64,000 nt of DNA from Planctomycetota bacterium (GCA_965223845.1 CBDCXR010000004.1:6208001-6272000), one strand, 5' to 3'. Shown: positions 5,237 to 19,769, counted from the first letter of the stretch. Notes: a model not told the origin generated them from the sequence alone. Numbers and translations are program-made.

Positions 5237-6934
5237 TCATTTCCGTTCCGCGACGAGCTTCCTCGCCTCACCGAGCACCTGATCGAGACTCCCGTGTCCG
5301 GCCACCCGGCCTCGTTGGTCGACGACCACGGAATACGGGATGCCGTGCACGTGGTACCAGCTAGAGAGGAAGCCGTAGCCTCGCCCTCCGCCGGGCTTCT
5401 TCGTATCGATGCAAATCGGATAGCTGAGCTTCTTCTCGTCGACCAGCTTCCTTACGCCTTCGAGCGATTTCGTCGGGGTGTGAACTCCGATCACGACCAC
5501 CCCGGATTTGTCTCGCCCTTTGTGCCAGCTCTTGAGGATCTCGAAGTCGTTCCGGCAGGGCGCGCACCAGTCGGCCCAGAACTCGAGAACGACCACTTTC
5601 CCTCGGAGATCGTTCCACGTGAGTGGCTTGCTGTTCAGCCAGACCGTTTTGGGGAAGTGCACGGCGGGCTTGCCGATCCGACGGTCCTGTTTCGCTTTTC
5701 GGTTTGCTTGCTCAGAGGCTTTCTTTGCGTGCGTGTCGAGGATCGCCTGCCACTCTTCGGGAGAGAACTCTTTCTTGTACGCGTAGAAAAGCGGCGGGTC
5801 ATACCGCCGGTCAGCGACTCGAACTCCTTCGCGCATTTCGACCTCGAAGAGCTCATCCGGAAGCGTCGTATTCACTCGGTGTTCGACGACCTCCAGATCC
5901 CGCCGGCCACGGATCTCGTCCTTCGTGCCCCGGCGGAAGAACCAGTAGCCGTACTTCAGCGGAAGTCGGAAGCCCGGTAGCAGCTCGCGGTAGTCGTCGA
6001 AGTATGTCTCGCTTGAAGGGTTCGCGGCCTCGAGTAGCTGAGCGACGAGACGTCGTTCCGCCTCCCTCTGTTTCTCCTCGGAAACGCCCTCTTTCCACGC
6101 TTTCCACGCCGCGACGTCCGCGATGGCCGCACCGGCGATGCGAGTCATCGCCTTCCTTCTCTCGTCATCCGGCACTCGCCGAAAGGAAGTCTGGCCGTAG
6201 AGGAACCCATCGTCGACCCCGACGTAGATACGCCGAGACGGCCAGCCGCGATCGGCGATGGTCCCGAGCACGTGACACTCGCGCCCGCGAACGTTCTCGT
6301 GGCCGAGAAGTACATATTCCTCCGGCGCGCCCCAGAAACGACTGCGATGCTTCCCGTCGCGGTCGTACCACATCGTCACCGATCCGATTTGGAACTCGCT
6401 CGAATTCCACCAAAACGAATGCGCTCCGATGGCGAGCCAGTAGAGACCGTCGATATGCGTGAAGTTCCCCTCCGGGCGGTCGTCGAGTGCGTAGCCTTCC
6501 TGCTTGTGCGTGAAATACCGTTCGTAGACTGTGGCCTGACGTCCGTCCCAAATCTGGAAATGAGTCGAGGCGTCGCGACGCTCGGAGGAGACTCGCATAC
6601 GAGCTCGATCGAACGCGAGCTCGATCGACTCCGTCTGCCGCGGACGTAGCGCGGGGAAGCGCTCCGGCGTCACGGTCTCGGGCGCGAACTTCTTCTCGAG
6701 GTCGGCCCGCTCGTCGGCGATCGTCTCCTTCGAGCGCGTCCACGTTCCGCGCATTCGGAGATGAAGACTCTCGAGATCGTGGATCTCGTTCTCGCGCGCG
6801 ACCAGCGCGCGAACGATGTCGGCGGCGTCAGCAGAGCTCGTCTCGGCACTCCCGTCCGCACGCGTGAAGTTCGTGCGAATCGCGATGGCGCCGAGAATCA
6901 GCAGCCAAACCGTACTACGGTGATGTCGTCTCAT
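5237..6934 (-). CDS. Exported protein with C-terminal TlpA/redoxin thioredoxin-fold domain
   Basis: Signal-like N-terminus; C-terminal LRGKVVVLEFWADWCAPC...VVIGVH...GIPYSVVVDQRG. Start at ATG 6934 inferred. Confidence 0.8.
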   Translation of the reverse strand: MRRHHRSTVWLLILGAIAIRTNFTRADGSAETSSADAADIVRALVARENEIHDLESLHLRMRGTWTRSKETIADERADLEKKFAPETVTPERFPALRPRQTESIELAFDRARMRVSSERRDASTHFQIWDGRQATVYERYFTHKQEGYALDDRPEGNFTHIDGLYWLAIGAHSFWWNSSEFQIGSVTMWYDRDGKHRSRFWGAPEEYVLLGHENVRGRECHVLGTIADRGWPSRRIYVGVDDGFLYGQTSFRRVPDDERRKAMTRIAGAAIADVAAWKAWKEGVSEEKQREAERRLVAQLLEAANPSSETYFDDYRELLPGFRLPLKYGYWFFRRGTKDEIRGRRDLEVVEHRVNTTLPDELFEVEMREGVRVADRRYDPPLFYAYKKEFSPEEWQAILDTHAKKASEQANRKAKQDRRIGKPAVHFPKTVWLNSKPLTWNDLRGKVVVLEFWADWCAPCRNDFEILKSWHKGRDKSGVVVIGVHTPTKSLEGVRKLVDEKKLSYPICIDTKKPGGGRGYGFLSSWYHVHGIPYSVVVDQRGRVAGHGSLDQVLGEARKLVAERK

Positions 6935-6987
6935 TCGGCATGATCTCCGGCATTCTTCGGACCTGTTGTCTCTCGTTCGAACTTGCA

Positions 6988-9900
6988 TCACGGCTGAAGC
7001 CTCACTTCGAGTACGCCGACCTCTCCGGATCGAAGTGTCACCGTCGCCGGATCGGGGCGCGGAAAGCCATCGGCCGACGCCTCGACGGTCCACTCGCCCT
7101 CCTCGAGCGCGTAGAGTCGCCCGACCCCGAAGCGATCGATGGAGATTCCGGTCGAGCGCCCGCGCTGCTTTTCGTGCCCGCGGAGCTTGACCCGCAGCGC
7201 AGACGGCCGCGTCCGTTCATTGCCGACCACCTCGACGCGAAACTCGAGCTGCGCACCGGGCTCGAGATGCACGACCGGCTCGAGATCCTCGATCGAGGCG
7301 TACGCGATGTCGCGCGGAAGAAAACGGTCGAGCTCGAACGAGAGCGTGCCGCTCTCGGGTAGATCGAAGCAGATGAACCTTCCCTGGTGGTCCGTGACCG
7401 TTCGCGCATTCCCGTAGTAGACCGAGGCGCTGCGAAGCGGATCTCCGTCGGGGCCGCGAACAACCGCCGACCACGTCGTACCGCGACCGAGATCCTTGAG
7501 CTGAAGCGTGAGTTCCGCCTCGAATCCGACCGCCGCTTCGGGTTCACGGCTCAGCGTCGCAGTTCGGTTTATCCGATGCCCGCGATACGCCGCCGAGACG
7601 TGATAGTATCCGCCGGCGAGGCCGGCGATGCGGTAGTCGCCTGCGGCGTCCGTCTCCGCCCAAGAGCCGAGGGGCGCACCGGAGCGCATGCTCGCTGAGT
7701 TGAGCGCCGAGACGAGCGCGCCTTCGACACCTCGCCCGCCGCTGTCGACGACTCGCCCGACGATCGCACCTCCTCGCGTGAGGACGATATCGTTCTCGAG
7801 CTCGACCGTCGCCCCGACATCGAGCGGAGCGAGTTTCTCGGTGTGAGTGACGCGATACTCGCCGCTGACAGAGATCTGGATCTCGACGCCCGCTTCGACG
7901 CCGACGAAGCGAAAGCGTCCGTCGACCGAACTCCGCGCCGTTCTTCTCGTCACGGGCGGTGAACCCGAGACCGTGACTCGCGCACCGACGACCGGAAGGC
8001 CGGAGTCGTCGACGACTCGCCCGCCGATCTCACCACCGGGAGCGAGCGCCACCTCGATCGAACCTTTGTCGGTCCTCGCGGCCGCATCCGGCTCGATCTC
8101 GACGGTCGTCGCCGCGTAGCGAAAGCGATGCACCTCGACGACGAGGTTCTCGCTCACGAACCCACCGAGCTCGGCCCGGCCCTCCTCGTCTGTTCGGCCC
8201 TCGTCGACTTTCCGTCCTCTCTCAACTTCGCCTCGTGGAGCAAAGATCTGCACCTGCGCCCCCTCGAGGAGTTCTCTACTCGCGGCGTCGCGCACGACGA
8301 TCTCGAGCTCCTCCCCGCGCTCGATCGACACCTCACCGACATCGATCGCGGCGCCGGAGATCGAATTGGCGTCGTGCTCGGTCCAGTCGAGCTCGACGTC
8401 GACCCAGCCGTCGACCTCGAGCACCGCGCGCGAAACTCCATCGGGGATGGCGGCGCTTCGAAACGCACCATCGGTGTCGATCTCGACCGACACTCGCTTT
8501 CGTTCGAAGCGCAACTCGCCCTTCGTGCCCTCCGCGAACCTCGAGTCGCGTTCGGACGGTTCCGATTCTCCGACCTCGGGACGCAAGCGACCGACCACGC
8601 GGTGACTCGGAGCGAGCTCGACCTCGACGAAGTCTTCGGCGGGAACGAGCTCGCTGTGCTTCGACCAGCGCGGCCATTCGGGATGGCTGACGGAGATCGA
8701 GCGGTAGAGTCGCGACGCGTTCGCGATTTCGAACTGGCCGTCTTCGTCGGTCGTCGCTTCGGGCTCTAGATGGTGGTTGTAGTAGAGGTGATCGGGGTAG
8801 CGATCTTCGATCGCCGGATAGATCGTGACCTTTGCACCCCTGATCGGTTCTCCGGCCGGCCCCCGAACGACACCCTTCAGCGAAGCGCCGGAGTGAACGC
8901 GGATGACGACATGAGAGACCTCGCCCGCCTTCGGTTTGACCGGCGCGGAAAAAGCGGCGCCGTACCCAGGGCCGATGACTTCGAATGCGACCAGAGGCTC
9001 GAGCGTGTCGACGGAGAACCGCCCCCACTCGTCGATCTCGAACGAGACGAAATCCCTCGACATGTAGCGTGCCGCACGGAGACCTTGCGGCGACTCCGAG
9101 AAAGCGCTCGCCATGAGCCGCGCTATCATGTGTCCTCTTCCTCCTTCGACGGGGCTCCCGTCGCGAGCGTAGACGACTTCGCCCGTGACGCGCGCGCCGG
9201 GCGAAAGGCGAACGGTGACGTCCTGGTCGTCCTCGATGCGCTTTCGGTGCGAGTCCGTCACCGGCAGGTACCCTTCGCGCTCGACCTCGACGCTGATGTC
9301 GCTCTCCTTCTTTTCGCGCGGAGGGAAACGAAACCGGCCTTCGGAGTCGGAGCGCGCGGTCGCGACGATCTCCGCCGGACCGCCGGAACGCGGCGACTCG
9401 ACGAGCCGGACTTCGGCATCGCCGACGGGAGAGAGTGTGAGGCTGTCGATCACGACTCCGCCCACGCGGAGTGCGACCGCCGGCGGTGATTCTTCGATCG
9501 GAGGCGGCACGGCGCCCCCGACCGCGGGTGTGTCGGCGACTCCGGGCGACGGAGCGGGCTCGGAAGCGCCCTCGGCGCCCGTGGCGACCGCCGGCGGATC
9601 GCCGGCGCCGACGACGGAGTTCGGAGTCGATTCCTGGTCGGGCCACGCGAACCACACGCCTGCGGCAATTACGGCGGACGCGACGAGCGCGATCGATCCT
9701 TTCGCGGCGAGGCTGGAGGCACCGAGGTGCGCCGCCGTCGACGCGCCTGCGGAGTGTCCGCAGAGCGGGATCAGTGCGAGTGCCCAGGTGCGGCGCTTGC
9801 TCCCGGAGCTTCGTTCGTCATCGAACCGATGGTCGAGCCGAACCGCGATCTGCTCGAGCGCTCGGCGGATGCGAGTGCGCACGGTCTCGACCGGGATCTC

Positions 9901-10329
9901 GAGCCGCGCCGCGATCTCTCGCGGCTTCAGGTTCTCGTAGAAGCGAAGCAGAACGACGCGCCGGTAACGTTCGTCGAGTGCGCGGACGGCATCGGTCACG
10001 GCGCCGAGCAAGTCCTCGCGCTCGCGGAGCTCGTCGACTCGCTGCGGATTGTCCTTGCGTTCGAGCTGACGACGACGATCCGCCTGCAGCTCGCGCCGAC
10101 GCCTGCGTTCGCCGCTTCGCCGCTCGTGCCGCGCCGTGTTTCGCACGACACCGGCGAGCCAGGCGCGAATCCGACCGGGCGTTTGTGGAGGTCGTGCCAA
10201 GAACGCGAGCCAGGCCTGTTGAACCAAATCGTCCGCGCGGCTCGCGTCCTCGACGAGACTCCGTGCCAAGCGCTGTACGAACTCCCCGTGCTGCGCGATC
10301 AGCTCCCAGTTTGCGTCGTCCGTTCGCAT
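6988..10329 (-). CDS. ECF sigma-70 factor fused via a TM helix to carboxypeptidase-regulatory-like (Cna-B type) repeats
   Basis: Region 2 (ADDLVQQAWL...AWLAGVVRN), region 4 (VVLLRFYENLKPREIAARLEIPVETVRTRIRRA), a hydrophobic segment, then repeated GxVVDxxGxPVxGAxV...TDxxGxF units. Confidence 0.88.
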   Translation of the reverse strand: MRTDDANWELIAQHGEFVQRLARSLVEDASRADDLVQQAWLAFLARPPQTPGRIRAWLAGVVRNTARHERRSGERRRRRELQADRRRQLERKDNPQRVDELREREDLLGAVTDAVRALDERYRRVVLLRFYENLKPREIAARLEIPVETVRTRIRRALEQIAVRLDHRFDDERSSGSKRRTWALALIPLCGHSAGASTAAHLGASSLAAKGSIALVASAVIAAGVWFAWPDQESTPNSVVGAGDPPAVATGAEGASEPAPSPGVADTPAVGGAVPPPIEESPPAVALRVGGVVIDSLTLSPVGDAEVRLVESPRSGGPAEIVATARSDSEGRFRFPPREKKESDISVEVEREGYLPVTDSHRKRIEDDQDVTVRLSPGARVTGEVVYARDGSPVEGGRGHMIARLMASAFSESPQGLRAARYMSRDFVSFEIDEWGRFSVDTLEPLVAFEVIGPGYGAAFSAPVKPKAGEVSHVVIRVHSGASLKGVVRGPAGEPIRGAKVTIYPAIEDRYPDHLYYNHHLEPEATTDEDGQFEIANASRLYRSISVSHPEWPRWSKHSELVPAEDFVEVELAPSHRVVGRLRPEVGESEPSERDSRFAEGTKGELRFERKRVSVEIDTDGAFRSAAIPDGVSRAVLEVDGWVDVELDWTEHDANSISGAAIDVGEVSIERGEELEIVVRDAASRELLEGAQVQIFAPRGEVERGRKVDEGRTDEEGRAELGGFVSENLVVEVHRFRYAATTVEIEPDAAARTDKGSIEVALAPGGEIGGRVVDDSGLPVVGARVTVSGSPPVTRRTARSSVDGRFRFVGVEAGVEIQISVSGEYRVTHTEKLAPLDVGATVELENDIVLTRGGAIVGRVVDSGGRGVEGALVSALNSASMRSGAPLGSWAETDAAGDYRIAGLAGGYYHVSAAYRGHRINRTATLSREPEAAVGFEAELTLQLKDLGRGTTWSAVVRGPDGDPLRSASVYYGNARTVTDHQGRFICFDLPESGTLSFELDRFLPRDIAYASIEDLEPVVHLEPGAQLEFRVEVVGNERTRPSALRVKLRGHEKQRGRSTGISIDRFGVGRLYALEEGEWTVEASADGFPRPDPATVTLRSGEVGVLEVRLQP

Positions 10330-11700: not shown

Positions 11701-12138
11701 TCAATTGTCGAGGGCGACTATGAAGAAGAAGTAAACGAAGAAGTTCGCAATCGCGACGCCGAGCGCGAGTCCGACCGCCGAGAGCCACGGGCGTGGTTCG
11801 CGCGTTCGGCGAAAGATCCAGACGGCCCAGGGGTAAAGGAGGAGCATGCTCGCGAGACCAGTGAGCACGCCGCCGGTCTGGAAATCGCGATTCCCCATGG
11901 CGCCTCCGATCAGAACCGATCCGCACGCGATGGTCGCGGGCAAGACGGCGACCGCGACCGATACGATGCGATGACCGATCAGCCGCCGCGTGATGCAGAG
12001 CTCCCACGGCTCGAGCTCGCGGGAACATTGCGGACAGGTGTGCGGTCGCCACACCGTAGGTGCGATGTCGAAGTGGCAACCCGGACAGTACCGCTGGCGA
12101 AGAATCGTCTCGGATTCGCGTTCAGCGCGTTCGGCCAT
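11701..12138 (-). CDS. Hypothetical zinc-ribbon membrane protein
   Basis: ATG 12138; CPGC...CPQC pairs followed by three hydrophobic helices; overlaps the end of the upstream gene by 17 nt. Confidence 0.65.
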   Translation of the reverse strand: MAERAERESETILRQRYCPGCHFDIAPTVWRPHTCPQCSRELEPWELCITRRLIGHRIVSVAVAVLPATIACGSVLIGGAMGNRDFQTGGVLTGLASMLLLYPWAVWIFRRTREPRPWLSAVGLALGVAIANFFVYFFFIVALDN

Positions 12139-15100
12139 CGTTCGCTTCGTTCGTTTCTCGCGGTGCGGCCGAGTTCGGGTCCTTCCCGAGACGAGTGAGA
12201 TTCGCCCGCGCCGGCGCAAAGCTCGGGTCGATCGCAAGGGCGCGCTCGAACGACTCCCGCGCCCGTTCGCGCTTTCCCCGGCGGAGCAGCAGAAGCCCGA
12301 GGTTGTTGTAAGGCTCCGGTACCCGGGAATCGAGCTCGATCGCGCGCTCGTACGCGACGATCGCCGCATCGAGATCGCCGAGCCGCCGGTAGACGACGCC
12401 GAGATTGTTGTAGACGTCCGAGAGATCGGGATCGAGCTCCCGTGCTCGCTCGAGAAGACGCCGGGCTTCTTCGTTCTCGTTCTCCGCGATCCGCACGCGC
12501 GCGAGGTTGTTGTGGGCGTTCGCGTTTCTCGGCTCGTGCCGAATCGCCGCGGCGAAGAACGGTGCGGCTTCTCGGACTCGCCCGCTCTTCGCGGTGAGAA
12601 CGCCGAGCGCATCGTACGCCTCTCCGTACGTCGGGCGTCGCTCGATCGCGTCGCGATACCAGCGCACGGCTTCTCGCGCAGCTCCGCGTCGCTCGGAGAG
12701 GACACCGAGATTGAAACTCGGCTCCGCGAAATCGTTTCGCAGCTCCCGGGCCCTCAGGAACGCCGCTTCAGCCTTGTCCCACTCGCCGTTCGCACCGGCC
12801 TCGCGAGTTCCCGCCTCGAGCGCGATCAGTCCGAGGTTGTTCCACGCCTCCGGAAAGTCGGGATTCCATTCGAGGAGCTCGCGATAGTGGCGCTCTGCGT
12901 CCGCGCGAGCACCCGCGAGGCGGAGGTCCGATGCGAGCTGAAAGCGTAGACGGGATTCCGCGAGGTGTCGGCTCGCCGCGATGCGCGGATGCGAGAGCGC
13001 GATCCCCTCGAGCGGCGCGGCGCGCCGGAATCGCTCGTTCGCATCTTCGGGCGTGCGCGCTGCGTCGGCGACCAAGGTCTCTGCATCCACCGGGCCTTTG
13101 TAGAGCGCGACCCATCGGCCGCGACCGTCGACGAGGAAGCTCGACGGGACCGGAAGCCGCGTGCTGAGCGGCAGCTGCGAATCGTGGAGGTGCTGAAGGA
13201 GACCGAGCACGGCCGGGGTCGCGCGCGCCCACGGAAACGCGAGGCGCAGTCGTTCCACCGCGCGCGGAGCCGCCTCGAGCGGCGTCGGATCGTCGCCCAC
13301 TCCGTCGACGCAGAGCGTGAGGACGCGGATTCGCGCTCGGTCGAACAATTCCTTCTGCTTCGTCCACGCGGCGAGTTCTTCGAGACAGGGAGCGCAGCGG
13401 CTCGACCAAAGGTTGAGTACGAGCGCTTCGCCGCTCCCGACGCGGAAGCCGGGCGATCCCGCCGGCGCGACCGCATCGAGGATTCCCTGCGGAAACGAGA
13501 CGAGGCTCACGAGCGGGATGCGGGCGGCAGCACGGGGCGCCTCCGGACGAGGACGCGAAGCGCGAAGCGCGAGCGCGTCGTTTCCCGGTGCCGCCGGGCG
13601 CGTCCACACCCGCGCGCGGCCCGCGCCTTGCTCGAGAACGAAGTGGCCGCCCGGCGACACCCCCTCGAACTCCTCGGTCGCGTTTTCTCGAGATCGCGTC
13701 GGCCACCGGACGCGAACGCGTTCGATCACCCGTGCCTCACCGTCCGGCGCGCGACCCAACCCGAAGTGGATCCACTTCGACGACTGCGAGAGGAATCCTT
13801 CGCCTGCGCGGAGTGTCTTCATGCGCGGTGCGTCTTCTCCCGCGACGAAGAGCTCGACCCGTGCGCCGATCGCATCTCGATTCGTTCCACTCGCGGTCGC
13901 GCGGAGTCGAAGCGCTGCGAAGTGATGGGCGATCGCCGCATCGACTTTCCCCGCGCCTCGGATGCGATTTCGGTAGAGACGAGCTCGCGGGGCGTTGCGG
14001 TTGGAAATCCAGAGGTCGAGATCGCCGTCGTGGTCCCAATCGACGAGTGCCACACCCCGCGAATCGTCCGGCGCGTCGAGACCGGACGCCCACGACACGT
14101 CCGCGAAGCGACCCGACGCACTTCCGAGGAAGCAACAATTGCGTTCCCGTGCGCTCCAAGACCGCCCTTCTTTCACCATCCGCGAGAGAGTGAAGAACGG
14201 GCTGAGCGCATCGCTCGCTCGATCGCCGACGTGGTCACGCGATGACGACACGACCTGTCGCCAGAAGAAGCTTCAGAGATCGCCGGTGTCTTCGGTCGTG
14301 ATGTATCCGTTCGCGACGATGAGATCCTCCCAGCCGTCGAGGTCGACATCGACGAAGTTCGAGCTCCACGCCCAGCGGCCGCGAAGGACGCCTGCGTCTT
14401 CGCTCACGTCTTCGAACGAACCATCGGGCGTCGCGCGAAGGAGGGTGTTCCCGCGGCTGAATCGCCGGAGGCGCGAGCGAACGTCTGCTCTCGAGTTCGG
14501 CTTGAACTCGGCCTGCCCGGTCACTCGGCTCCCCGCGGCCGAGAACATGTTGCTCACGTAGACGTCCATGCGGCCGTCGCGGTCGAAATCGGCCCAGGTC
14601 ACGGACATCCCCGAGGCGCTGTCCTCAGCGTTGCGAGCGGCGGCGACGTCGATGAAGCGCGCGGTGCCTGACTCCGCGAGTTGGTTCTCGTAGAGAGTGT
14701 TCCGCCCGAAGTCGTTCGCGACGTAGAGGTCGTCGTCGCCGTCCCCATCGTAATCCTCCCACGCGGCGGCGAAGCTGAATCGCCGGTTGTTTTCGTCGAG
14801 ACCGGACTCTTTCGTCGCGTCGGTGAACTGCCACTCTGTTCCGTTCGTGCGGTCGTTGCGAAAAAGTGTATTCGGAGCGCCGCTGTTCGCGTCGTGATAC
14901 ACGAAGTCCTCGCCCACTCCGATCGACACGATTCCGGATTCCTCCGCGAGGTCGCTCCGGTTGTAGCCGCAGACGTAGATGTCGAGATCGCCGTCGCGAT
15001 CGTAGTCCGCCGCAGCGAGTGAGAACGAGTCTTCGCACGTCGAGAGGGTCGCGCGAACGTCGAATCTCCCGCGCCCATCGTTGGCTGCGAGAACGAGCAC

Positions 15101-16240
15101 GTTCGTCGTTCCGGCGGCGAGATCCTGGTCGCCGTCGCCGTCGAGATCGACGAGGAGAACGCCACGCGTGCTCTCGAGCCAATCGACCCCGCTTTCACGG
15201 GACGCGTCCGTGGCCGTTCCGTCGAGATTCTGGCGGTAGAGGCGATTTGGGAGTCCACCCTCCTGGGAGAGAAAGAGATCGTCGAGTCCGTCCCCGTTCA
15301 CGTCGCCGACGGCGATTCCCGGCGTCCCGAGAAGATTGAACGAGCGACCGTCTTGGATGCGCTGCGCCCAGTGGTTGTAGCCGAAGAGGAGATGTTTCGA
15401 GTACGACTCGTTCGCGCCGAGGACCGAGGGTGTGACCTCCTCGAAGAGGGGTGCCGGCGCCTCCGTCTCCTCGTGTTCGCCGACCGCGATCGACGCGAGA
15501 CGAAGGTCTCCCGAGGGCGCGCGACGCCAGCGCGTGCGCCAGCGCGCGTGAATCTCGAGCGGTCCCGCAGCTCGCGTCGCGGCGATCGATACGTGCTCGG
15601 TGCTCGCGACCGTACCGCCTTCCTCGACGACGCGGACCACTTTCATCTCGACGCGCCGTTCGATCGCGCCGGCGAGGCGATCACGAAGCGGACGGAGCGC
15701 GGTGACGAAACGCGCGACACCGGCCGTTTCACTGCCGCCGCCATCGCTCTCGTCGGGGGCGGCAGGGGCCGCTCTCGCGCGTGCGACGGAAAAGTAGCCG
15801 GCCGCCGACGGCGCCGAGTCGACTTTCGGGCGGAGAGTCTCTCCGCGGAAGCCCGGGTCGATGATCCTCGCGAGATCCGTCGGCGGGGGCGCGCCGCGGG
15901 ACGAAATGAGCTCACCCACCTTCTTCAGCCGCGCTTTCACTTCGTCGTGGAGAGCTTCCGACGCCCAGCCATCGCGGGAGGGGTCATCGCGCTCGTCCCA
16001 TCCCGGGACATCGTCCGACTCCGGGAGCGCGATCAGCTCGCGAACGAGCTCGACGCTGCCTTCGGCGTTTTCGACCGGAGCGATCGACGGGGGCGGCGCG
16101 TCCGAGACCTTCTCTACCCCGCGGTCGCAGCCGCCGACGAGCGCAGCGCCGGCGATGAGGAGTCCGACCGTGCGCGCGACGCCGCCCCGACTCCTCAGAG
16201 GAAGTTCGAACGTATCGCCGGCTCGTCGTCTATCGCGCAT
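12122..16240 (-). CDS. CRTAC1-like FG-GAP / ASPIC-UnbV / thioredoxin-like / TPR lipoprotein with one in-frame TGA (codon 656, probable selenocysteine); shown as two ORFs in the track
   Basis: Lipobox-like LVGGC; many DxDxDGxxD repeats; ORFs 14273-16240 and 12122-14251 share a frame and are separated only by TGA at 14273-14275; then the ASPIC/UnbV motif (NRDAIGARV...GEGFLSQSSKWIHFGLG), LNLWSSRCAPC and C-terminal TPRs. Confidence 0.8.
14243..14263 (-). promoter_or_regulatory. Candidate bacterial SECIS hairpin
   Basis: mRNA UGA-AGCUUCUUC-UGGCGACA-GGUCG-UGUCGUCA: 8-bp stem (one G-U pair) with a GG-starting loop beginning 18 nt after the UGA. Confidence 0.6.
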
Positions 16241-16484: not shown

Positions 16485-19400
16485 TCAGCACTTGTCGTAG
16501 AGATCGCAACCGAGCGAATCCGCGGGGCTCGGATCCGGGCCGCAGTCGGTTCCCTCCGGTCCGTGGCCGCCGATCGGCGGGGGGCCGTCTCCGAAGAGGC
16601 GATTGAGGCCGAAAATCGGATCGGCGATGTTGTACGCCGCGTCGCCGTTCACGTCCGCGGTCTCGGTACACGGCGGTGCACTGCCGTCGCCGAACAGGTC
16701 GTTCAGCATGAAGATCATGTCGGCGATGTTGACGGCGCCGTCGTTGTTGGCGTCGCCGCGACGGAACTCTTGGCCGCCGCCGTCACCCGTCACGGTGTCC
16801 GCGCCGGCCTCGAAGTTCCCTAGGACTTCGCTCCAGCTGAGCGCGCGGTCGTACAGACGAAACTCGTTGATCGATCCGTCGAGCATGGGATCGTCCCACT
16901 GCGAGCGCCCGAGCCAGTTGTTGAGCTCGAGCATGTCCGCGATCGAAAAGTGCGTATCATTCTGGTCGACCCGCGAACCGTCGACGAAGAGCGCAACTCG
17001 ACCTTCGTCGCCGTTCCAGACGACGACGATGTGCTGCTCGACGCCGTTCGGCATCGTCGCCGCGTTGAGTTGCCGCTCGACGCCCGTCGGGCCGTCACGA
17101 TAGCCGAAACGAAGCGAGTTTCCGCCGCTTCTCGGCGTGAGGAAGAGGTTGTACGTCGTCGCACCGCCATCGGAGAAGTCTTCGCCGCCGACGGAATTGC
17201 CGAGATCGAAGAGGCGCTGCCAAGCGGGAGAGAACGCATTCCCGTTCCAGGTTGCCCACAGCTCGAACGTGACGTTGTTCCCGAGCGCCGAGATCATCTC
17301 GTTCGGAAGATCGACGTAGGCGCCGGGCGGATCCGCGGGCGGTGACTGACCGTTGTCGTTCGAGCTCTGAGCGCCGGGGTTGTTGGTGAACACGGCCTGA
17401 CCGTCGAACGCGACCTCGCCGTAGCCTATCCCGTCCGCGCCGCCGTTCGCATCGGACGCGTCGGCCGTGAACGAGTATCGGTGCGCCGGACCGCTCGAGA
17501 GATCGGCGGGCATCACCGCATTCACCGTCCAGTTGACTTCCGCGGTTCCCTCCGAGTTGGTCGCCCTGACGCGAACCTCGAACGAAGCCGGTCGGGGGTC
17601 GGGAATCGTGTAGTTCACGAGACCGCCCGGCGTGACCGTCGCGCCGTCCGGAGACAGAGCTTCGACCGTCGGAACGGGGACTCCCGAGATCGAAAGTTGC
17701 CGAGCATAGACCGTTTCGGTCGGTCCGATCTCGTCCTCTGCCGGAACGCCGGTGATCTCGGGCGCGACGGGATCGAAGAAGTCACTGAACTCCGTATTGA
17801 AGTTGTGCTCGATCTCCGCGTCCCGGAGCGTGTCCGAGTGGATGCGGAGCCGCGCGATGGAGAGCGAGCCCTTGAGCGGAATGTTGACCGCGACGCCGTC
17901 CGGCTCGAGCTGGCCCGCCACCGTGATGCGCGTGCAGCAATGGGTGTCGATGGCGCCGACGCCGAGCTCCTCCTCGTTCTGGAGAACGCCGTCGGCGTAC
18001 ACCCGTGTCGTCGTTCCGTCGTAGGTATAAACGAGGTAATGCCAGATTCCCGCCTCGGGTGCGCCCGGTGTGAAGTCATTGTCGACCCAGCCGATGTCAG
18101 CGGTCGCGCCGCCCCAGTGTCCGATGGCGCCGAAGTTGCCGTGGTCCCCGTAGTTGAAGCTCATGTTCGAACCGTCGGGACCGCCGCGCCGTCCCCAAGC
18201 GACGATGGTCTCCTCGCTCGCGATCTCTGGGTTGTACACCCAGGCCTCGATCGATCGTTTCGGATCGGGGCCGATGATGCTTTCGGGCGCATTCTCGATG
18301 CTCTGGTAGAAGTCGTCGGTGAATCCGTCCGGCGGATTGAAGGTCACGGCGGCGACACCCTCGACCGTCTCGAGGAAGGGCTCACCGACTCGCTCGAAGT
18401 CGCCGGCCTCGCTGTCTTCGGCGAGATTGGTCCAGAAATCTTCGCCCGCCGATTCGTCGTCGGCGTCGAGGTGGACGACGAGCTGACCGGCGACCGCGAG
18501 CTGGCCCACCGGGGGAAGTCCCTCGCGCGAGACCGTCCACGATGCTTCCGTTTCGCCGGCTGAGTTCGATGCCTTGATCGTGATCTCGAAGGAACCCGGC
18601 TGCGGATCGGGAAGTGGGACCGAGAGCGAGCCGCGTCGCGCGAATTTGCCCGACTCCGTCAGAGACGTATTCGCGGGTGCCGCGACGATCTCGACCGACG
18701 GCAGCGGGAAGCCATCGACCGCGAACGTCGCCGTGTACTCCGCCTCCCCGGCGAGGTAGGTCTCGTCGTCCGGCACGCCCACAAAGACGGGCGCGACCGG
18801 CGTGATCGGGAAGTCTTCGCGCTCGAGCTCGTAGTTGTTGGCGATTTGCTCATCGGTAAGGACGCCGTCGTGGATGCGGAGGCGTCCGATCGAGAGCGAG
18901 CCCTTGAGCGGCAGATTGATCGCGATGCCGTCCGGCTCGAGCTGTCCGGCGACGGTGATGCGCGTCTCGCCGTGAGTATTGATCACACCCGGTCCCAGGA
19001 CCTCGTTGTTCGCGTCGCACTGCTCTTCGCTGATGCAACCATCGGCGTAGACGCGCGTCACCTCACCGTCGTAGGCGTAGACGAGGTGGTGCCACTGCCC
19101 CGCGACCGGCGCACCCGCGGTGAACGCGTTGTCGACCCAGCCGATGTCCGGGCCGTTGCCGCCCCAGTGGCCGATCGCGCCGAAGTTTCCGTGGAACCCG
19201 TAGTTGAAGCTCATGTTCGAGCCGTCGGGACCGCCGCGTCGTCCCCAGGAGACGATCGTCTCTTCCGACGCGATCTCCGGGTTGAACACCCAAGCTTCGA
19301 TCGTTCGCGTGGCGTCCACTCCAATGAGACCTTCCGACGCGAACTCGACGCTCTGATAGAAGTCGTCGGTGAAGTCGAAGTTGAAGGTGACGGCCGTAGC

Positions 19401-19622
19401 GCCGTTGATGTCCTCGACAAACGGCTCGCCGACTTTCTCGAAGTCGCCGACGGGGCTGTCGTCGACGAGGTTGATCCAAAAATCTTCGCCGGCGGATTCA
19501 TCTCCCGCGTCGAGGTCGACGACGAGATCTTCCGTCTCGAGCTGGGCGAAGGTGTCGCTCGGAACGAAGAACGTACCGAACGCGCACACTACGGCAATCG
19601 CGACCGCGCGATGTCGGTGCAT
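16485..19622 (-). CDS. Secreted LamG/concanavalin-A-like multidomain protein with C-terminal dockerin-like domain
   Basis: AAGGAGG RBS before ATG 19622; signal peptide; two near-identical LamG-like units (TIEAWV...WHHLVYAYDG...VYADG...LRIH) plus a third (TFELWATW...IVVVWNG...INEFRLYDRAL); ends FRRGDANNDG...ADVNGD. Confidence 0.85.
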   Translation of the reverse strand: MHRHRAVAIAVVCAFGTFFVPSDTFAQLETEDLVVDLDAGDESAGEDFWINLVDDSPVGDFEKVGEPFVEDINGATAVTFNFDFTDDFYQSVEFASEGLIGVDATRTIEAWVFNPEIASEETIVSWGRRGGPDGSNMSFNYGFHGNFGAIGHWGGNGPDIGWVDNAFTAGAPVAGQWHHLVYAYDGEVTRVYADGCISEEQCDANNEVLGPGVINTHGETRITVAGQLEPDGIAINLPLKGSLSIGRLRIHDGVLTDEQIANNYELEREDFPITPVAPVFVGVPDDETYLAGEAEYTATFAVDGFPLPSVEIVAAPANTSLTESGKFARRGSLSVPLPDPQPGSFEITIKASNSAGETEASWTVSREGLPPVGQLAVAGQLVVHLDADDESAGEDFWTNLAEDSEAGDFERVGEPFLETVEGVAAVTFNPPDGFTDDFYQSIENAPESIIGPDPKRSIEAWVYNPEIASEETIVAWGRRGGPDGSNMSFNYGDHGNFGAIGHWGGATADIGWVDNDFTPGAPEAGIWHYLVYTYDGTTTRVYADGVLQNEEELGVGAIDTHCCTRITVAGQLEPDGVAVNIPLKGSLSIARLRIHSDTLRDAEIEHNFNTEFSDFFDPVAPEITGVPAEDEIGPTETVYARQLSISGVPVPTVEALSPDGATVTPGGLVNYTIPDPRPASFEVRVRATNSEGTAEVNWTVNAVMPADLSSGPAHRYSFTADASDANGGADGIGYGEVAFDGQAVFTNNPGAQSSNDNGQSPPADPPGAYVDLPNEMISALGNNVTFELWATWNGNAFSPAWQRLFDLGNSVGGEDFSDGGATTYNLFLTPRSGGNSLRFGYRDGPTGVERQLNAATMPNGVEQHIVVVWNGDEGRVALFVDGSRVDQNDTHFSIADMLELNNWLGRSQWDDPMLDGSINEFRLYDRALSWSEVLGNFEAGADTVTGDGGGQEFRRGDANNDGAVNIADMIFMLNDLFGDGSAPPCTETADVNGDAAYNIADPIFGLNRLFGDGPPPIGGHGPEGTDCGPDPSPADSLGCDLYDKC

Positions 19623-19739
19623 GATCCAACCCTCCTTTGTTCGGCGCTGATTTCGCGCTTCCGGCAGAATCAGCGAAGAGATTTCAGCCCGCTTCGTTGC
19701 GTAGGCGACAAAGATCCTGGACCCTCGACCAGACCCGCC

Positions 19740-19769
19740 ATCGTAGGCCCAGTCGGCGGGAGCCGTCAA
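19740..19769 (-). promoter_or_regulatory. Sigma-70-like promoter for the LamG gene
   Basis: Minus strand TTGACG-N18-TACGAT about 120 nt upstream of the start. Confidence 0.45.

Follow-up and report, generated by a model that had tools for sequence, protein, structure and literature searches.

Does the TGA codon that separates two long open reading frames (ORFs) in a planctomycete genome end one protein, or is it read as selenocysteine (Sec) inside a single larger one? The question arises in a 64,000-nucleotide (nt) stretch of DNA from a Planctomycetota bacterium (GCA_965223845.1, CBDCXR010000004.1:6208001-6272000), here termed the window, at a minus-strand locus that encodes an FG-GAP, UnbV_ASPIC, thioredoxin-like and TPR protein. 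An ORF of 655 residues with an ATG start (14273..16240) is followed, in a common frame, by one of 709 residues with a GTG start (12122..14251). Read-through from 16240 to 12122 yields 1372 residues interrupted by a sole internal TGA at codon 656, in agreement with a first-pass annotation that had described two ORFs of one frame joined at this codon. The codon context is ...IVANGYITTEDTGDL-U-SFFWRQVVSS...WSARERNCCF.... The gene ends at an ordinary TGA stop, and the genetic code is therefore not reassigned.

SelB-dependent insertion of Sec at the internal TGA (14275-14273) by the canonical bacterial mechanism, with one 1372-residue product, is very probable given the conserved UGA, a covarying hairpin of the selenocysteine insertion sequence (SECIS) type and a complete Sec machinery. 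The hairpin, which begins 9 nt downstream of the UGA and bears a GGUCG apical loop, would act as a bacterial SECIS and recruit SelB carrying Sec-tRNA(Sec). The ribosome would then insert Sec at position 656, and one 1372-residue precursor would be made in place of two proteins.

Conservation of the internal TGA

The segment surrounding the codon (residues 540-780) served as the query for a search of 61 related genomes. Among the strong matches, which extend down to about 30% identity, nearly all contain exactly one TGA, and several of the genomes have many copies each. In the first loci collected from 26 genomes, the window's own included, the TGA column is identical in all 26 and lies within the flanking motif NG[YF][IV][TS]..xDL-U-SF[FY]WRQVV. 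A wider set added 32 regions from the same genomes and 80 named records from the GTDB species collection; TGA occupies the column in 71 of the 140 loci aligned over it, and a sense codon or a gap stands there in the other 69. The 71 include the window's own gene (L020) and one record that appears twice (L059 and L147), which leaves 70 distinct loci. Four more (L058, L064, L068 and L129) were left uncounted, as their TGA lies at least one codon off in the BLAST alignment. In one of these (L068, G048:C44), TGC directly precedes the TGA and gives a Cys-Sec dipeptide rather than Leu-Sec.

The first-pass annotation had pointed to conservation of the TGA across divergent genomes as a mark of Sec, and such conservation is found. 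As named in their records, the TGA forms belong to Planctomycetota (Phycisphaerae, Pirellulaceae and others), Verrucomicrobiota (Verrucomicrobiales, Akkermansiaceae and Roseibacillus), Acidobacteriota (three) and Gemmatimonadota (one metagenome-assembled genome). The stop is TGA in all 71 loci; TAA or TAG occurs at the site in none of them, and no TGA locus has a second stop inside the matched region.

The source genome alone carries eight TGA paralogues, counting the window copy. The other seven lie on the contig from which the window is taken (C4), near positions 354983, 613330, 952208, 2068927, 2896179, 3012259 and 4394974 (L070-L076), each with one TGA at the Sec column and a hairpin of its own. 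The paralogue at about 2.07 Mb has the peptide ..RDL-U-SDWWRRAVR.. and a stem of CCGUGCG / CGCACGG with a GUU loop.

A lone in-frame stop in a long gene resembles a recent nonsense mutation, and a pseudogene, or an error of assembly or sequencing, would explain the TGA on that footing. The probability of this explanation is negligible. TGA recurs at one column in 70 distinct loci from several phyla with no other stop in the match, and it is common to the eight paralogues of the source genome. Confirmation of the codon in sequencing data had been proposed at first pass, and the TGA is present there: independently built Logan contigs of three runs (X1, X3 and X4) include it, and no letter in them differs. 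The runs listed as containing this DNA include none of RNA.

The Logan unitigs of the three runs break at 14246-14278, where the summed depth is 114-425 compared with 4.7-32 in the flanks, because the TGA-plus-hairpin segment of about 30 bases is repeated among the eight paralogues. Copies from other organisms presumably share this repeat as well.

The downstream hairpin and the decoding machinery

With the U of the UGA numbered 0, the hairpin is an 8-bp stem, formed by positions 12-19 with 25-32, that closes a GGUCG loop at positions 20-24. A count of positions upholds the first-pass description of its stem, loop and distance from the UGA. The alternative GTG start (14251-14249) had been described as buried in the hairpin, and it does take in the final base of the loop together with the two bases that open the 3ʹ arm. 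In the main subfamily the stem consists of the codons for W-R-Q-V-V-S, and several of its positions are consequently fixed by the protein. The positions free to vary are the Arg wobble, the second Val wobble, bases 1 and 3 of the Ser codon and base 1 of the codon that follows.

All six core pairs are present in 48 of the 55 TGA forms that carry the W-R motif. Three others have five pairs, and in the remaining four the stem is shifted by one base, with a GGUC loop in three. The comparison group is formed by 14 non-TGA relatives in which the SFFWRQVV peptide is likewise encoded; most are from Acidobacteria, and the Sec column is occupied by Ala, Ser, Asn, Glu or Gly. Only one of these has all six core pairs, and the free positions are paired in 5, 5, 7 and 8 of the 14.

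Covariation was counted on an alignment (A3) of 56 rows, 52 of them distinct, and compared with 500 shuffles. Paired cells make up 91.0% of the alignment versus 84.3% in shuffles, and the covariation score is 0.243 versus 0.115; none of the 500 shuffles reaches either observed value. When the 3ʹ arm is slid along the alignment, pairing falls to 19%-68%. The pair between positions 18 and 28 takes six forms (AU 17, GU 13, CG 6, GC 6, UA 4 and UG 1). Such covariation is hard to explain by selection on the protein, since the 3ʹ member of the pair falls at the first position of a codon, where the changes alter the residue (Ser, Pro, Thr or Ala). Hairpin covariation, suggested at first pass as a further sign of a genuine element, is thus borne out both by the contrast between TGA and non-TGA forms and by the six pair types.

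The apical loop shows the same division. In a crude hairpin scan, a GGUC loop was found in 51 of the 71 TGA forms versus 2 of the 69 non-TGA loci, and 65 of the 71 TGA forms have GU in the loop. The GGUC loop is also encoded in other codon phases and by other peptides (WRQVVS, ENVGRRS and GAVAP), which argues that the RNA element is conserved independently of the peptide. For ..GAVAP.. the hairpin reads CCGGUGC-GGUC-GCACCGG, and for ..ENVGRRS.. it reads GAACGUC-GGUC-GACGUUC. The latter belongs to a shorter subfamily (L053, L055-L059, L061, L063, L064 and L066-L068) with the peptide ..DL-U-MDFVENVGRRS and open frames of about 400-940 residues; its stem has a compensatory change of its own, GUU..AAC in L058.

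The arrangement resembles the fdhF-type SECIS of E. coli in having an in-frame UGA, a hairpin that starts about 9-11 nt downstream, a G and a U in the apical loop some 18-25 nt past the UGA, and selA, selB, selD and tRNA-Sec in the genome. It differs in its short stem (6-9 bp) and in that this stem is almost wholly made of the codons for WRQVVS, a motif that pre-exists in non-Sec relatives. The GGUCG hairpin is presumably also like the fdhF element in the sequence of its loop. An Rfam scan of 14100-14400 returned no matching family, the only match being a chance one to sR45 (E = 6).

The genome encodes the complete set of decoding factors, each scoring above its cut-off. A tRNA-Sec lies at C4:7438639 (68.1 bits versus an Rfam cut-off of 47), where ARAGORN also calls a tRNA-SeC with anticodon TCA. 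The genes selB (C4:7038097, 320 bits), selA (C4:7458128, 536 bits) and selD (C4:5317241, 308 bits) all exceed curated cut-offs. All four hits fall outside the window (C4:6208001-6272000), within which the first-pass annotation had correctly seen no sel genes. Among the 61 relatives, selA is above cut-off in 58, including all 26 genomes with a listed TGA match, and the three genomes that lack it (G024, G052 and G059) have no TGA form among the matches listed.

Several observations weigh against Sec decoding at this codon. The folding energy is ordinary (-21.9 kcal/mol for 66 nt, z -0.20), with 84 of 200 shuffles folding as well, and it is the comparison with relatives, and not the energy, that makes the hairpin significant. 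Variation is slight in four of the six stem pairs, which are largely fixed by the peptide, so that the covariation is mainly that of one pair, with GC/GU exchange at another. The presence of selA discriminates poorly because nearly every relative has the gene. Finally, runs X1, X3 and X4 represent one sample, possibly the assembly's own source.

If the TGA were a true stop, the second protein would have to arise by re-initiation at the GTG within the hairpin, and the locus would be a conserved split gene. The GTG does lie 24 nt past the TGA in almost all copies, and the two halves are annotated as separate genes in databases and in the footnote to Table S9 of an earlier survey (PMC4807772). 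However, this GTG is sequestered within the hairpin, where it serves as the Val codon on which stem pair 19-27 depends, a split gene gives no role to the GGUC loop or to the stem covariation, and the stop at all 71 loci is TGA, never TAA or TAG. The break would also fall inside one propeller domain that is modelled as a single unit, with a predicted local distance difference test (pLDDT) score of 90, and more than 1500 homologues run continuously through the break point. Moreover, the translation has a probable signal peptide on its first half only, and the second half would be made without one. A split gene is thus very unlikely; like a pseudogene, it is contradicted by the hairpin, by a fold that is a single domain, by the fact that only TGA is used and by the lack of a signal peptide on the second half.

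The Sec site, its fold and its candidate redox partners

What might Sec do at this position? Full-length homologues without a stop number 1528, and the Sec column is readable in 118 of the best 120. The residues found there are A 34, S 29, N 18, E 10, C 7, D 6, G 6, H 4, Y 2, L 1 and R 1, so that Cys and Ser, which the first-pass annotation had anticipated in other homologues, are both represented, with Ala the commonest. Cys also stands at the column in loci L069 and L141. The flanking motif is nearly invariant, but across most of the family the residue at the Sec column is free to vary. On an unrooted FastTree tree of 232 segments, the Sec, Cys and other states require 17 changes, compared with a mean of 72 in shuffles (minimum 64). 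One clade, of 110 rows, is made up purely of non-Sec forms, and the Sec forms are scattered across several clades.

Residues 270-1075 were modelled with AlphaFold2 from a 108-row alignment, with Cys replacing Sec; the mean pLDDT is 90.2 and the predicted template modelling score 0.92. The first-pass annotation had placed Sec656 in a propeller loop. The propeller stands, but a plain loop does not: Sec656 (model residue 387) is modelled as the first residue of a helix (387-395, U-SFFWRQVV), which together with a second helix (407-421) forms an insert between propeller strands of adjoining blades. The N-terminus of a helix is a typical position for reactive thiols and selenols. Cys702 and Cys703 (model residues 433 and 434) open the next strand. 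The best match among solved structures is mouse CRTAC1 (9etn_A; E 8.6e-26, template modelling (TM) score on target 0.71, 16% identity). Searching PDB sequences with a profile of alignment A1 mostly brought up TPR proteins and did not resolve the Sec site at the level of residues. The protein is like CRTAC1, as seen in the mouse crystal structure (9etn), in joining an FG-GAP propeller to a UnbV_ASPIC domain; it differs in that neither Sec nor a fused thioredoxin domain nor a TPR tail is hinted at in the title of the 9etn entry.

For the C-terminal part of the model, the fold matches are ResA, TlpA and a Bacillus thiol-disulfide oxidoreductase (4nmu), with TM scores on target of 0.54-0.69. Residues 936-1053 share with the TlpA and ResA oxidoreductases their fold and a CxxC motif (CAPC), whose cysteines are residues 680 and 683 of the model. 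The NCBIfam TlpA model (NF047696) scores 26.1 bits over these residues, far under its cut-off of 230, and no thioredoxin-type Pfam family is listed for the 1372-residue protein at E <= 0.01. With the sequence score under the curated cut-off, the TlpA/ResA assignment is kept at the level of fold and motif. Unlike TlpA and ResA, the domain is here one part of a 1372-residue protein, and its CxxC has decayed in most non-Sec relatives, usually to AxxC, SxxS or SxxC in forms with neither Sec nor Cys.

Two features accompany Sec. At column 702, the place of the first Cys of ..ERN-CC-F.., 77% of 26 Sec forms and 71% of 7 Cys forms have Cys, versus 4% of 113 other forms. In a larger set, Cys is found at 702 or 703 in 37 of 65 Sec forms, 5 of 9 Cys forms and 9 of 134 others. 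The CxxC is intact in all 35 Sec forms with a detected thioredoxin-like domain, in 3 of 5 Cys forms and in 12 of 104 others. The first-pass annotation had offered the CAPC domain as a possible redox partner of Sec; the association is there (35/35 versus 12/104), and the support that it lends to a partnership is by association.

The co-occurrence of Sec, Cys702 and an intact CxxC suggests an intramolecular redox relay. In such a relay, the selenol of Sec656 at the helix N-terminus would react with substrate, and Cys702 or Cys703 would resolve the reacted selenol by forming a selenylsulfide with Sec656. The fused TlpA/ResA-like CxxC would reduce the selenylsulfide and would itself be recharged from the membrane, as TlpA and ResA are, and the TPR tail may mediate protein contacts. 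Whether the protein is an extracytoplasmic redox enzyme whose Sec656-Cys702/703 selenylsulfide is recycled by the fused CxxC appears evenly balanced. The wider proposal is of a large and widespread class of extracytoplasmic selenoenzymes built on a CRTAC1-like propeller and not on a classical redox fold, with Sec at a mostly redox-inert site (Ala, Ser or Asn) and a three-centre relay at the cell surface that includes the nearby Cys and the TlpA-like CxxC. It is put forward tentatively, its chances falling a little short of even.

On the functional side, the chief alternative is that Sec is structural or binds a metal. Here Sec would be inserted without any CxxC-driven relay and would serve as a structural cross-link, as a ligand of a metal or metalloid, or as a lineage-specific stabilising substitution at a tolerant surface site, a reading that is plausible though on balance doubtful. 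Four observations count in its favour and against the relay. The Sec column is non-Cys in 111 of the 118 uninterrupted homologues, and Cys in only 7 is atypical for a catalytic Sec. No Cys is present at 702 or 703 in 28 of the 65 Sec forms. A thioredoxin-domain match is absent from 14 Sec loci with enough downstream sequence, which include several shorter Sec subfamilies. Lastly, phylogenetically controlled tests are not significant: independent pairs of Sec/Cys state against CxxC or Cys702 number 5 and 7, with median p of 0.25 and 0.5, and these tests are little informative because there are too few independent transitions.

Other evidence speaks against a structural or ligand role. Such a role is at odds with a CxxC that is intact in every Sec form in which the domain was detected and with the enrichment of Cys702 in Sec and Cys forms only, and the model places Sec at a helix N-terminus. 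Furthermore, eight paralogues, each with its own SECIS, would be costly for a purely structural residue.

Under the relay and structural readings alike, the Sec site is unusual, since most relatives are non-Cys at the column, the fold is a propeller, the protein is probably exported and the genome has eight copies. Sec would lie in an exported beta-propeller at a site that is mostly non-redox in relatives, unlike the usual exchange of Cys and Sec in oxidoreductase active sites. We know of no enzymatic function for the CRTAC1/ASPIC-UnbV family, and the link of Sec to Cys702 and the CxxC offers a concrete and testable hypothesis for it.

Prior record, annotation and features of the locus

The first-pass annotation had called the product a probable unannotated selenoprotein. 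The assignment as a selenoprotein is strongly supported, but such genes are not wholly unrecorded: Kim et al. 2016 (PLoS One, PMC4807772) list four of them as selenoprotein candidates in Table S9. These have the same domain content, and in each case the annotation gives a pair of neighbouring genes that meet at an in-frame UGA. Three of the four were positive in bSECISearch, and the closest non-Sec match was an acidobacterial protein with Gly at the site (PMC4807772). They are likened to the gene at 12122..16240 by description. The present analysis differs in scope, as PMC4807772 lists only the four gene pairs, does not use 'FG-Gap' or 'UnbV' in its main text, and gives no codon conservation, hairpin covariation, partner Cys, CxxC link or family size.

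A literature word search for FG-GAP, UnbV, ASPIC or CRTAC1 selenoproteins found nothing beyond Kim et al. 2016. Word searches likewise did not find the family in the deep-Sep and BSepDB supplements or in the main text of a 2026 review (PMC13188914); in all of these, entries under other names would escape. The family is widespread and barely documented as a selenoprotein family, and it is not wholly new.

The decoding claim is of practical value for annotation. At E <= 1e-20 the N-terminal ORF matches 5355 proteins, and the best 120, which include the window's own product, all end at ..xDL directly before the Sec column (GDL 103, SDL 15, IDL 1 and RDL 1). Since all 120 end before the Sec codon, gene callers appear to split these genes, and thousands of entries may be wrong. 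Selenoprotein counts for planctomycetes, verrucomicrobia and some acidobacteria may be too low, with eight copies in the source genome alone; if all are decoded as proposed, these would make up the largest share of the organism's selenoproteome.

The features of the gene are collected in Table 1. FG-GAP_3 (PF13517) scores 129.1 bits over five stretches against a Pfam cut-off of 26.9, PF01839 scores 72.1 bits (cut-off 22.1) and UnbV_ASPIC (PF07593) scores 45.9 bits (cut-off 23.4). The product is probably exported and lipid-anchored through Cys38, which stands in what we take to be a lipobox.

Table 1. Features of the gene and its predicted product; positions are those of the window.
Feature	Position	Strand	Basis
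1372-codon gene for an FG-GAP / UnbV_ASPIC / thioredoxin-like / TPR protein, very probably with Sec656	12122..16240	-	single frame with one internal TGA; Pfam
Probable signal peptide with presumed lipobox ..LLIAGAALVGG-C38	16127..16240	-	read from translation
CRTAC1-like FG-GAP beta-propeller, residues ~300-780	13901..15343	-	five FG-GAP_3 stretches; model and fold match
UGA codon 656, very probably read as selenocysteine	14273..14275	-	column conservation; contigs of runs X1, X3, X4
Putative SECIS hairpin	14243..14263	-	5ʹ arm 14263-14256, loop GGUCG 14255-14251, 3ʹ arm 14250-14243
Cys702-Cys703, candidate resolving cysteine(s) for Sec656	14132..14137	-	column 702 statistics
UnbV_ASPIC domain, residues 790-852	13685..13873	-	PF07593
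TlpA/ResA-like thioredoxin-fold domain, residues ~936-1053	13082..13435	-	weak TlpA match, fold, CxxC
C949-A-P-C952 (CAPC)	13396-13385	-	translation
C-terminal TPR array, residues ~1119-1355	12176..12886	-	TPR_11, TPR_2, TPR_17, TPR_1 and others above Pfam cut-offs
Terminal TGA stop	12124-12122	-	translation

The neighbouring genes (Laminin_G_3, a fusion of extracytoplasmic-function (ECF) sigma factor and CarboxypepD_reg domains, an AhpC/TSA-like protein and an aldo-keto reductase) suggest no operon logic. Upstream on the same strand, and separated by a gap of about 245 nt, a gene at 16485-19769 (-) encodes 1094 residues with three Laminin_G_3 (concanavalin-like) stretches. The ORF at 6988-10329 (-; 1113 residues) joins an ECF-type sigma-70 factor (regions 2 and 4) to four CarboxypepD_reg domains. 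That at 5237-7093 (-; 618 residues) has an AhpC/TSA-Redoxin domain at its C-terminus only (residues 474-598) and, as listed, shares about 100 nt with the sigma-factor ORF.

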